DNA of 64,000 nt. Source: Syntrophorhabdaceae bacterium. GTDB taxonomy: Bacteria; Desulfobacterota; Syntrophorhabdia; Syntrophorhabdales; Syntrophorhabdaceae. Below the pieces are notes generated by a model that searched no databases, was not told the origin of the DNA, and was given only the letters and a program-made list of their open reading frames with translations. Shown piece by piece: positions 51,619 through 56,451 of the stretch. The translations under genes were made by a program, and so were the position numbers. The stretch spans positions 224,001 to 288,000 of the forward strand of contig OY762209.1 of assembly GCA_963665295.1 (NCBI GenBank), written 5' to 3'. Position 1 is the first letter of the stretch. The number at the start of each line of letters is the position of its first letter.

Positions 51619-54600
51619 CTAATGGTTCACTAACTTCCAACCGGCATCGGTTACGGTCGCGAACAGCTGACCCCCCGTAAACGTTACGTTGCTCATATAC
51701 CAGACCGCGTTCGCGCCTGTCGAGTGTCTCCATAGCAGGTCGGGGTAGCCGTCGTTATTGAAGTCGCCTACGCCGGCTATCGCCCAGTTCAGATCGGCCT
51801 CGGTCGGGAGAGCGCCGGTCCCGATGAGCGTTGCTCCTGCGTCCATGTACCAGACCCTGTTCGCGCCTGTCGAGATGTTTCTCCACACCACGTCGGGATA
51901 GCCATCTCTGTCGAAGTCATCCCAACCGACAATCGTCCAGTTCGCATCGGCCTCGGTGGGGAGCGTCTTATCCCCTATGACCGTTACGCCATTCATATAC
52001 CAGACCGCGTTCGCGCCCGTCGAGTGTCTCCATAGCAGGTCGGGATGGCCGTCGTTGTTGAAATCTCTTACGCCGACTATCGCCCAGTTCGGATCGGCCT
52101 CGGTGGGGAGCGTACCGGTCCCGATCAGGGTAGCGGCATTCAAATACCAGACCCTGTTCGCGCCTGTCGAGATGTTTCTCCACACCACGTCGGGATGGCC
52201 GTCGTTATTGAAGTCATTCCAACCGACAATCGTCCAGTTCGCATCGGCCTCGGTCGGGAGCATCTGGTCCCCGATGAGCGTTACGCCATTCATATACCAG
52301 ACCGCGTTCGCGCCTGTCGAGTGTCTCCATAGCAGGTCGGGGTAGCCGTCATTGTTGAGGTCCCAAGGACTCGGCCGCTGCAGTACCATCGGCCGCATCA
52401 TGTCGTTCTCTTCATGGCTCAGGATGTGGCAGTGCCACACGTATTCCTGACCGAAGTTGTATAACCGGTTCGTCATCGGCGGCACAATATTACCCCCGTC
52501 CGTCGGGTCGATCTGCGAGAAGCCCATGTCGGAGCCCAGAGGGGTCGCCGGGTTCAAAGGACGAATGCTGTTGGGCAGAGAAAAAGGAACGCGGGGAACA
52601 ATCGGCCTCAAGGCAACGATGGTGTCTTCCAGAGGGCTCATCCTGACCGTGTCCTTCCATCCCAGTTCGTTGGGATCGGGCAGCCTGATAAATCCGTCCC
52701 AACCGACACGGTTCAGTACCTGCACGTCAAACAAGTGAAAATGAATCGGGTGGGTATCCACGCCGTTGTGGGTAATCCTCCAAATCTGCGTTTCGTTCGG
52801 ATTCACCACTTCAGTGGGGGGATCTACGAAGTTCTGGAGTACAAAATTCGCAATCGCCGCGTTGGTGAACGGCAATTCGAGGCCTAATTTGGCGCTCATC
52901 CGTCCGTAGTCATCAAAGGTCGCGCCCATTTCGTCATGGATGGCCTTCGGATCCATCGCGTAATTACTCACTATGGTGCCGTCAACCTTCTTGAAGCTGA
53001 TGGCGCCGTCGGAAATCCTCGAAATGCCCCAGTTGGGCCACGTAGCGGGGAAGGTGGTATTGTAGGCGGAGGTGTGGCCTGCGCCTGTGCCGTAAGCTGC
53101 CTGCCCCACGAGGATCGTCTCCTGGCCCGATGCGAAAGCGCCCGGCGTGGCCCCTGAGGCGAACGCGGCCTGAAGGGTGGCAAAGAAGGTCGTGTCGTAG
53201 TCATCCACCGGCGCCGAGCCACCCGCTCCCGCCACCGTGATCTGCATGACGGTCCTGATATTGGGTCCGGCACCTGCTGCAATGGCGGTGTAGCCGCCAA
53301 TGTCTGTCCGGTTCGGGGCGCCGGTATAGTAGTCATACTGGGGAACGAGGGCCGGGAACGCCGTAGGGGCGTCATTGTACAGAATCAGGGTCGCTCCCCC
53401 GTAATTCGTGAAATCAACGACCACATCCGCTCTTTCAGCAGGGCCGAGGAAAAGCGTACCACCACCCTGGTTCTGCTGAAGCACGTTCCCGAAGTTGAAC
53501 ATCGTGGGGTCGGTGTTCCACTGTACCGGGTGGTTGGGAAGCACTACAGGGGCCGGCAGAAAACCGCCCTCGCTTCCGACCTGGATAAACGCGGGACCTC
53601 TCTTCGCAGGATCAGGTACTCCGCCCTCCCTGCCGTCCGTAGGCCAGTTATTCGGGAATCCCCCGGTCAGCGCCGCGGGCACCATCCCCACTTCTGTCAG
53701 GGATGTGTATACCGCCGCAGTGGCGGTAGCCTGCACGCCTGCCCCCCCAGGCGGGGCGATGGTCACCGTGGGGGCTACCGTATAGCCGCTTCCCACGGTA
53801 TCAAGGGCAATGGCCGTAACAACACCGCCCGTCACTGTCGCGGTAGCGGTAGCGCCGGTTCCGTTGCCGCCGGCGATGGTCACCGCAGGTGCGGAGGTGT
53901 AGCCGGAACCGCCGCCGGTAACGGTGATGCCGCTTACGATCGGAGTCGCTCTGTAGAACTGGAGATTGAGGAACCTGTCATGCGCCGCGTTCAGGATCCG
54001 GAAACGATACTTCTGCGCCGACACTTGGTAGGTGGGGTAAACAGTGCCGTTGACCATCATGGTATCAAGAAATGCCTCGGCTCCCCACGATGGGTGGGGT
54101 GTGCCGGGCATTTGAGGCGGCTGCAACTCATTATAGTTGGGGTTGGCAGGATCAGCGTAGGGGTTTGCAACCGGCCCAAAATCGACGCAGAAGGGTTTCA
54201 CTGCGTCGGCGGACGACCCGCACACCGGGGTCGCCGGGAAAAACCATGGGCCATAATGCCAACGTCCGTACTGGTTGATCCCGCTCAAGTCTGGGTTATA
54301 AGGGTTCTGGGCGGGCATATATACGTGAGGCCACCAGAGGTCGCCCGTGACAGGCGTCGCCGTGGCGGGTTTCCCGGGGTTCGATCCCCATGCCCAGGTC
54401 GGGTCGGTAGTCATTACCGTAGCAGCGTTTACAAAGGTCTTGTCCTGGATAATGAGAGGAACCTGTGTGGAAGGGAGTGTTCCTGCGGCAAAGGTCCGAC
54501 CGTTGATAGTCCCACCCTGGACGAGGGCCGTCTCCACCGGGTCTTGTATCAGGTAGCCTGCCGCATTGCCCGCGTACACATTAAGACGGGTGATGCCCCA

Positions 54601-55512
54601 GGCATGGTCGTGATAGAACAGCAGCCTGGCGCTTTGCTGGTTGGTGTAGTAATAAGTCTGCGATCCCTGGCCGGGATTGTTGGTGGCGCCCGAAACAGCG
54701 CAGGTCGTCTGACCCGCGCAACCGGTGATGGTTGCTCCTGCCGCGGTAAACCACATGTCAGGCACATACGAAACGCTCACGCCCTTGCGGTAGGAAGTGG
54801 TCTCCGCCGCAGGCGTGATCCACTGGTGGGGAGTGCCGTCGCTGATCCATGGGGTGTGGCCTCCATGGAGATGGAGGTTCGCCCTGTTCTGGGTGAAGGT
54901 GCCGGTTATTGTCGAAATCGGAGCCTTTGTTACGGGGTCGTAGTTGATTTCAAAGCTCCCCGAACCCATTACGCTGCCGTCTACGGGAAGAAAAAGATCA
55001 CCCCCCGTCCCCGCGGGGAGGCTGTTGGTAAACTTGATGCGTACGGGCCTGTCTTTCTGGGCGATAATCAAGGGCCCAAGATAGTGGGGCACCAGCAGGT
55101 CGGCTCCGCCGTTCGTCTGGCGGTACCCTCTCAGCTTGGTGCCGCCGCTTGTGGCGGTCGTCTTATCCGAACCGCTGACGGCCGGAATTTGCGAGTGCAT
55201 CCTCTCTCGATACTGCACGAGCTCGATCTCATAATAATCGGACCCCGGATAGGTGCTCTGGTCCGCAACGGCAACAGGAATGCACTGTCCCAGATTGTTG
55301 GGAGTAGTGCACCCCAGGGGGGCCAGGGTATCCATGAATTTGGTGAACGCCGGACTGTTTGCCCAGTTCGGCGTAAGAAAATAGTCGGGAACGTAGTATC
55401 CGTTAGCCCCCACATCAAGCGCCTGCGCGGGAGGCGCCCCCTTTCCCCAAGGGAGGGCGGCTAATATCAGCGCCAGACCGATAACCACGGCAAAACCTCT
55501 ACTCTTCGACAT
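51619..55512 (-). CDS. Exported multicopper oxidase 3 (OmpB-like) with GSGYT-repeat insertion and five FG-GAP repeats
   Basis: HLHG, FYHDH, HPIHFH and [14 protein letters not shown] motifs, signal peptide, GAGGAGG RBS. Confidence 0.92.
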
Positions 55513-55529
55513 TTCTTCCTCCTCTTCTA

Positions 55530-56015
55530 ATGAAGTCTGTCAAGCATATAATTACTGCCCGTTAAGACTATGTTCACGTTGTGGCGGCTTCCAGCCTTTT
55601 TGACCCCTCTATCCAACCTCTTTTGTTCTCCGGGCCTTATGCCCAACTTACGTTATACAGATCTAAAGGGGCGGTGGAAGTTGACCAAGCTTTGTCGTAC
55701 AGGCCTTATGCCTTCGAGGATCCACGATCCTCCTTCCACCACAACGTATCTCCTTATGCCGCCCGGGCGCAGCTCATTTCTTCCGTAAACATCCTACTGT
55801 CGCGCATCAGTGCAAAGATCACCCTTATGAACTTGATGATCATGGCGCAGAGTGCCTCCTTCATTTTGAGCGGACGAAGCAGTCCTTTCCGTTTGTTCTC
55901 GTAATACTCCTTGAAGAACACGGTCCTATGGACTATCCTCATTGCCATGAAGTAGAGGCATCTCCTTAAGAGCCGCAGTCCTTTCTTGGAAACGATCTCT
56001 CGCCGGCCCCTTGAC
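55530..56015 (-). mobile_element. IS110-family remnant: transposase C-terminal fragment (55754-~56015) plus right end
   Basis: SKKGLRLLRRCLYFMAM...FKEYY...KEALCAMIIKFIRVIFALMRD..F is typical of the IS110 C-terminus. Outward-facing TTGACA at 55543-55538. Confidence 0.75.
55576..55747 (-). ncRNA. Candidate IS110/IS1111 bridge (seek) RNA in the element's right end
   Basis: Starts just after the transposase stop. 12-bp closing stem with a G-U pair on the minus strand, and two GGC-AUAAG-GCC hairpins. Confidence 0.5.
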
Positions 56016-56024
56016 TGATAAGAA

Positions 56025-56041
56025 CGCAATATGCGTGCCGC
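56025..56041 (-). promoter_or_regulatory. Sigma-54 promoter upstream of the IS remnant and oxidase 3
   Basis: Minus strand reads CGGCACGCATATTGCG (GG-N10-GC). Confidence 0.75.
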
Positions 56042-56125
56042 AACTCCGCCAACCTAAATATACCACAATTTCCTGCATATACGGTAAAGTAGGAGATTTG
56101 ATGAAGCGTCCCTGTATCGAAAATC

Positions 56126-56182
56126 GTCTTGAAAAGCAAGAATGTGTCTTGAAAAGCAAGAATGTGTCTTGAAAAGCAAGAA
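56126..56182. repeat. Perfect 20-bp tandem repeat forming three GTCTTG-N5-CAAGAA enhancer-like sites
   Basis: GTCTTGAAAAGCAAGAA(TGT) starts at 56126, 56146 and 56166. Confidence 0.85.
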
Positions 56183-56422
56183 CGCAAGACGTTCGAGGGC
56201 GCCCGGTATAAGCTCCGGGGTCTTGTCTCCAACATGGAGTGGACGGGAGAAAAGTACGCGCCAAAACGACCTACAGGAGTACCTGTGCCATGTTTCCATA
56301 AACGATAAGGATGCAGTGAATCCTCCTTTAATGTTTGAAAACGGGGCTATTGACTGGAATAATGGTTCGGACGTCATAAGGAGGGGGAAAGCAGGTGATG
56401 CATTTGGGGAGGACGGCGTGAT

Positions 56423-56451
56423 TTGACAAAAACGCCCAAAATCCTTATAAT
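56423..56451 (+). promoter_or_regulatory. Consensus sigma-70 promoter of the moxR-vWA pair
   Basis: TTGACA-N17-TATAAT. Confidence 0.8.

Follow-up and report, generated by a model that had tools for sequence, protein, structure and literature searches.

The bridge/seek RNA mechanism of IS110/IS1111 elements has been known since 2024. The closest described systems are IS1111-type elements with a downstream seekRNA (ISEc11 and others; PMC11187229) and the bridge RNAs of the IS1111 group (PMC11208160), which in the parts of these sources considered here have a long right end carrying the RNA and a short left end, as does the family presented below. Further features shared with PMC11187229, as far as considered, are a complement to the top strand that precedes the match to the bottom strand, a junction promoter, and a subterminal inverted repeat that starts 7 bp from the left end. 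Judged by the order of its parts the layout of our family is IS1111-like, and a downstream region occurs in some IS110-type elements as well (same part of PMC11187229). The repeat of IS1111-type elements, however, is typically near perfect over 11–13 bp (PMC11187229) or spans 7–17 bp (PMC11208160), whereas here it is imperfect, about 9 bp long and placed at offsets 7 and 4. Our family also differs by its 424-aa recombinase, whose best plasmid matches are IS110 proteins of Bacillota at about 30%, and by its target, the Shine-Dalgarno (SD) sequence.

IS621 (PMC11208160; PMC13626964; PDB 8wt6) shares with our family a two-loop RNA, four guides, a dinucleotide core, a discontinuous donor guide and a junction promoter. 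Nevertheless, its RNA lies in the left end, the order of the guides is opposite, the target is REP, and the parts of these sources considered report no enclosing stem. IS900 of Mycobacterium avium subsp. paratuberculosis, also an IS110-family element, targets translation initiation signals (CATG-N6-TCTCCTT) and rarely breaks genes, according to the part of PMC8141618 considered. We read its orientation as antiparallel to the gene, with the hed ORF on the opposite strand, whereas the family described here is co-oriented, cuts within the SD and rebuilds it from the right end. ssr9/MITEPpu9 of ISPpu9 (PMC12288879, in part) is, like our locus, an RNA-bearing IS110 piece without a transposase, in one case beside a truncated transposase end; it has both ends and is mobile, whereas the present relic has one end, occurs once and cannot excise. 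Our search for the marks of a MITE-like derivative, both ends and several copies, found no left end and a single copy. A bridge RNA of about 170 nt with target and donor loops, as here, is described for CazIS110-1 (10.1101/2025.10.25.684509, in part). Targeting of ribosome-binding sites by an IS110 element (IS900) and RNA modules without a transposase (ssr9) are already known. We found no literature on a bridge RNA guide that spells an SD sequence, and the target logos in PMC11187229 and the tables in PMC11208160 may list SD-targeting elements; for a recombination guide turned cis regulator no literature was found either.

The remnant between a predicted promoter and the oxidase gene

All positions refer to the window, i.e. 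the whole stretch of 64,000 nucleotides that was analysed. The 477 bp at 55998-55522 (minus strand) are the right-hand part of an IS110-family element. They end just in front of an open frame on the same strand (51619–55512, ATG at 55512) for a secreted multicopper oxidase of 1297 aa with FG-GAP repeats. Contigs of two public sequencing runs, one of them possibly from the source sample, cover 54800-56155 without differences, and thus the relic is not an assembly artefact. In contigs of four runs, which drop rare variants, neither a variant nor a joint bridging the relic was seen, and the depth does not increase there.

The preliminary description of this DNA had recognised an IS110 right end with only C-terminal codons of the transposase, and the homolog search bears this out. 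The open frame of the stub runs from 56029 to 55754, and over the final ~82 codons it shares 78% identity with proteins of 420–424 aa with PF01548 and PF02371; the NCBIfam profile NF033542 matches it with an E value of 1.4e-7, while a Pfam search of the stub gave no match. Full-length relatives encode a 424-aa recombinase with DEDD (PF01548) and Tnp (PF02371) domains, and this copy retains only the C-terminal stub, a decaying stretch of the last ~81–82 codons plus stop without the catalytic domain (55754–55998, minus). The joint between host leader and IS remnant, ascribed to a deletion, lies at 55998–56009 (minus). Of 55 long alignments with full elements, 42 begin at 55998 or 56001, and a GGCCGG match may extend the homology to about 56008.

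The proximity of the stub to a predicted sigma-54 start, also pointed out earlier, was confirmed. A -24/-12 motif (GGCACG-N4-TTGC) at 56026–56039 (minus) is the sole match in the window, where 0.09 matches are expected (8 of 100 shuffles had one), and rpoN is present in the genome. The predicted transcription start is near 56014, and IS homology begins 5–16 nt past it. Upstream of the motif, three TCTTG-N5-CAAGA palindromes with 20-nt spacing form a tandem repeat (56126–56185, minus), and two or three similar boxes with a spacing of about 20 nt precede six of nine homologous oxidase genes. In four homologs a sigma-54-like motif follows the last box after 111–116 nt (102 nt here), and because this geometry is common to the oxidase homologs the sigma-54 promoter is probably native. 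A sigma-54 promoter at 56026-56039 is therefore plausible as a prediction, and the palindromic boxes are probably activator-binding sites of the oxidase promoter. Together, boxes and sigma-54-like motifs would mark a common regulon of large secreted multicopper oxidases. The distance from promoter to ATG is about 200 nt in three of the four homologs and 527 nt here. The closest oxidase homolog (71% identical, genome G079) lacks both the IS and a sigma-54 motif, and its upstream region is unrelated. No activator with the usual peptide motif was found within C1:200-310 kb.

Boxes with sigma-54-like motifs were also seen upstream of window 6816-3001 and of 27526 and at the relatives' loci L160, L162, L164 and L167, and four further box-plus-motif pairs occur elsewhere in the genome. 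A fourth oxidase paralog (G000:C1:5074808-5075442) seems to be split and to lack a start. The divergent MoxR/VWA genes have a perfect sigma-70 consensus promoter (12/12; window 56423-56451, plus strand), which is conserved in relatives. Just upstream of the palindromic boxes lies a 20-codon scrap of an IS1380-family transposase (56195–56254, plus; 75% over 20 aa to a genomic frame matching NF033539), a second IS scar unrelated to the IS110 relic.

For comparison of the ends, an alignment of 26 relatives plus the stub served to collect 138 loci, 58 of them from genomes and the others the 80 best among 327 matches in metagenomes. Of these loci and the window, 111 yielded the RNA, 103 a right end and 124 a left end. 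Named hosts include Syntrophorhabdus, other Thermodesulfobacteriota and Nitrospirota. Full-length copies of the IS, whose recovery had been proposed as a check, were thus obtained from relatives, and none was found in this 5.5-Mb genome. Left ends start with AG-CTTACTATA, right ends terminate with CTTCATTAGAAG-AG, and the core is fixed as AG because locus L118 carries joined ends (L118:60-120), which correspond to a tandem copy or an excised circle. In 94 full elements the median length is 114 bp for the left and 240 bp for the right end. The subterminal inverted repeat is imperfect and about 9 bp long, with best offsets of 7 (left) and 4 (right) in 48 of 94 elements and 8 of 9 positions matching in 69–94 of the 94; its right copy lies at 55528–55536 (minus) in the window. 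When the ends are joined, TTGACN stands 17–18 nt from the left-end TACTAT in 85 of 94 full elements. By this spacing the joined ends form a predicted junction promoter across the circle, a feature known for the IS110 family (PMC11208160, in part), and the TTGACA at 55538–55543 (minus) would be its -35 half. Some right ends carry extra sequence downstream of the RNA (L032, L034-L037, L147, L148, L151, L152, L154) or upstream of it (L024, L137, L145, L155), possibly nested mini-elements or cargo.

The terminus of the element in the window is the core dinucleotide AG at 55522–55523 (minus), as deduced from the ends of full elements. The end had been placed at 55530; the true end, core AG 55523-55522, is inside the ribosome-binding site. 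The resulting hybrid SD, GAG|GAGG (55518–55524, minus), has been rebuilt, since the element end with its core supplies GAG in front of the host GAGG. At 55540-55509 (minus) a pairing is predicted (p 0.85-0.9) between the right end of the element and both the start codon and the bases that follow the SD; it leaves GAGGAG mostly open. According to the fold prediction, it could damp translation.

The bridge RNA and its guides

The stub is followed by a 172-nt region (55576–55747, minus) with a closing stem, a target-binding loop and a donor-binding loop. The region with its 12-bp closing stem (55576-55587/55736-55747), two identical hairpins, an outward TTGACA and the oxidase RBS had been reported before, and all these parts are present. 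The minus strand folds with a z score of -5.4 (0 of 200 shuffles), the plus strand with -2.7. In the family fold derived from 59 non-redundant copies, the closing stem encloses two stem-loops, each with a large internal loop; 96.6% of the cells are paired and 11 of 36 pairs show two-sided change, counts which, as the sequences share kinship, represent support and not a probability. This pairing was reached by none of 500 shuffles and slid controls gave 32–52%, and the covariation among homologous IS ends that had been named as a check is thus present. The family model scores the window RNA at 170.6 bits, compared to 167–190 bits for whole copies (this copy was used in building the model). Covarying stems together with loops that match donor and target, as described below, indicate that the 172-nt RNA is a true bridge/seek RNA, as its likeness had suggested.

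Not every structural feature noticed earlier carries weight. The hairpins and the large internal loop exist, but folding of the single sequence shows the donor loop only, and the target loop emerges only in the family fold. The closing stem is mostly invariant, and we dropped it as proof of structure because its inner 10 pairs show no two-sided change. The identity of the hairpins at 55633 and 55702 occurs in 2 of 59 family members and is incidental. An Rfam search with the RNA gave no match up to E 5, and in the 5.5-Mb genome the RNA itself was the sole match (150 of 1429 candidates scored), in agreement with blastn.

Guides were located by mutual information between RNA columns and flanking DNA in 111 copies, all on the minus strand in the window, and the four guides track element ends and insertion targets across these copies, as the earlier reading had asked of the loops. 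The right target guide UCCUC (55716–55720) is complementary to GAGGA at 55521-55517; over the family, 55718 is complementary to flank position +3 in 100 of 100 copies and 55717 to +2 in 99 of 100. It precedes (55720-55716) the left target guide ACAA with the core AG (55695-55690), in which 55692 equals flank position -1 (97 of 101 copies); right guide first and left guide second is the arrangement of IS1111-type elements (PMC11187229, in part). Towards the donor, the right guide GUAAGUU (55645–55651) is complementary to the left end, which is lost in this copy, with matches in 103 of 103 (55651) and 102 of 103 (55650) copies and just two variant rows per position. The left donor guide is discontinuous (AG, five nucleotides looped out, AAGAG; 55618–55629) and identical to the right end, with 55628 and 55622 each equal to the right-end base in 101 of 101 copies.

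The four-base right guide changed eight times on a quick tree of 81 recombinases, and the rare guides CCGC, CCCC and CATC are accompanied by matching flanks. When flanks were permuted within the SD clade, positions +2, +4, +5, -1 and -3 fitted their own flank better than permuted flanks, while +6 to +8, -2 and -4 to -8 fitted no better. In the window the right guide pairs with GAGGA beside the core in 5 of 5 positions; the left flank of this copy is deleted, and the right guide alone can be compared. Among the distinct right flanks, those shorter than 200 nt were dropped (10 of 43 and 11 of 53) and one CATC row was kept apart. Of the remaining sites, 24 of 33 with SD-type guides, the window included, have an ATG 7–16 nt on and an ORF of at least 60 codons, compared to 1 of 42 with CTTC guides (GAAG-type). 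As background, 513 of 2300 AAGGAGG words in this genome precede an ATG and an ORF. The excess of SD sites over this background reflects either target choice or loss of harmful insertions.

From its pairing with the flanks, the target guide is an anti-Shine-Dalgarno sequence. In this lineage the target guides specify (A)AG|GAGG; insertion takes place at AG|GAGG, and the SD is restored in the process. The oxidase RBS is thus the insertion junction, and the element sits here because its guide spells the Shine-Dalgarno sequence. The anti-SD nature of the guide, which explains the position of the element, had gone unnoticed in the preliminary description.

The CTTC guide is used by two separate clades (among L021-L058 and L084-L156) and by L128, and the insertion site of both clades is TTTC-AG-GAAG. 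Common to their 52 distinct left flanks are ATT at -52 to -50, TG.AA at -43 to -39 and G..AT at -34 to -31. This pattern about 50 bp upstream of the sites looks like a conserved DNA site, possibly a promoter class, which looks to have been reached twice by convergence.

History of the copy and rival explanations

We consider it probable that the locus is a passive relic of an IS110-family element programmed for ribosome-binding sites. The element would have landed in the oxidase RBS, co-oriented with the gene, and moved the sigma-54 promoter about 1.6 kb away, and its own end GAAG-AG would have rebuilt the SD behind the insertion. In the simplest course, a later single deletion may then have taken most of the native leader together with the left 1.1 kb of the element, comprising the left end and 80% of the recombinase gene. 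It would have reached to about 10 nt past the predicted sigma-54 start and left both promoter and RBS in place. The remainder is probably transcribed as a leader of about 500 nt when the sigma-54 promoter fires. Its RNA would have neither a recombinase nor a left end to act on and would be drifting, and the right end would persist because any further loss must halt short of the RBS. Probably the RNA survives only through being welded to the start of the oxidase gene. Homologous oxidase loci included no empty site that corresponds exactly to this locus, and for this reason the order of events is only inferred; such a site should read approximately CAAAG-GAGGAAGAAATG with a native leader of about 190 nt.

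The truncation series in other genomes fits such a course. Of the matches to the right end (n=29), 4 belong to full elements, 7 lie at contig edges, 3 are long partial copies, 4 are shorter than 50 bp and one is the window copy, which leaves 10 interior 5'-truncated relics of 50 bp or more from other genomes. One of the ten keeps the whole RNA, one most of it, and eight are at most 131 bp long; the right end served as the query and is bound to be present, whereas the loss of the RNA is not built into the search. Behind six of the ten, a GAGG is followed by a start codon and a long ORF. Against six short right-end relics there was a single left-end one, numbers too small to show an effect of welding to the RBS. 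Right-end scars of 57–128 bp fused to host RBSs with long ORFs behind were seen at L183, L186, L006, L189, L199 and L177.

Within the copy, stub and RNA differ in their state. The stub has changed in 5 of 68 family-conserved columns, a level reached by 2 of 110 relatives, and it bears 14 private changes in 178 positions vs 3 in 147 for the RNA (Fisher p 0.023; p 0.037-0.093 with other panels or with a 3-base block counted once, overall 0.02-0.09). In the RNA no consensus pair and no guide is broken. Nevertheless, the family fold lies 12.0 kcal/mol above the optimum, the fourth worst value of 59, and the refolded RNA buries the anti-SD in a 7-bp hairpin.

Its slower decay raises the question whether the RNA has been retained as a structured 5' UTR that hides the anti-SD in a hairpin and stabilises or tunes the oxidase mRNA. 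Besides its placement between a plausible promoter and the RBS, the three private changes speak for this: together they widen the gap to the guide fold from 2.2 to 12.0 kcal/mol, give the copy the lowest free energy of the 59 members, and surpass 98% of 400 random triplets in stabilising the alternative fold (post hoc, with three substitutions per triplet, while one of the real changes is an insertion). These statistics, however, are borderline and post hoc and concern three events, and the same alternative hairpin is already optimal in the intact relative L078. Pairing of the guide with the SD in cis within the fused leader was rejected as a candidate at a predicted probability of 0.0. Relics elsewhere are usually without the RNA, and related genomes hold no shared copy. 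Active relatives also conserve the RNA well, and a decay in stages could yield the same contrast. We therefore regard co-option as a 5' UTR, as proposed earlier, as unlikely; slower decay and refolding provide one weak hint, but the truncation series argues against it. Somewhat less likely again is that the bridge RNA was domesticated as a 5' leader under the sigma-54 promoter and selected to refold and bury the anti-SD, as a stabiliser or switch acting in cis.

Improbable, and less so than the readings that follow, is a decay in stages, in which the recombinase gene was the first to go, while RNA and ends kept working with the help in trans of a sister copy that has since disappeared. It alone accounts for the better state of the RNA, action in trans is experimentally possible (PMC11208160, in part), and a decayed 60-codon scrap of the same family is found at C1:1090077-1090256. 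Against it stand the absence of a dated series and the weak selection on a non-autonomous copy in place. It is compatible with, and partly nested in, the passive-relic explanation.

That the host promoter makes an RNA that today loads a recombinase encoded elsewhere in the genome, the in-trans guide of the preliminary description, is very improbable. All guides are intact, and read-through can supply bridge RNA in IS621 (PMC13626964, in part), but no intact IS110 recombinase was found in the 5.5-Mb genome, and the IS110 genes found are all broken. One is 26% identical and split by an insertion, another is cut at the C-terminus by an IS3 element, and further remnants are a truncated copy of the latter and the above scrap; the scrap aside, these three genes show 26% identity or cannot be aligned, and each is either interrupted or truncated. 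Neither the left end nor a full copy was found in the genome, and the guide fold is disfavoured. The relic RNA could at most serve an incoming relative. Least probable of all, the use of TTGACA as a sigma-70 -35 box for the oxidase, which had also been suggested, draws on a perfect consensus hexamer pointing at the gene but fails on a distance of 26 nt to the ATG, a -10 slot that coincides with the SD and reads AGGAAG, a start that would fall inside the oxidase ORF, a promoter scan without a minus-strand site here, and a partner in the left end (TACTAT, 85/94).

Consequences for the family and its hosts

As a locus, the remnant is ordinary debris, the one-ended relic of an SD-targeting IS110-family element. 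If the RNA were selected as a leader, this would be a recombination guide turned cis regulator. The family is more useful, since it offers a clean natural series with all four guides mapped: several times on the tree, a change of one to three guide bases has switched the target from the SD to another site or back. SD targeting offers an abundant site that is occupied without breaking a reading frame, and it leaves right-end scars of 30–480 bp on host RBSs. With such scars fused to ribosome-binding sites, part of the sequence of some leaders and RBSs in these bacteria derives from transposons.
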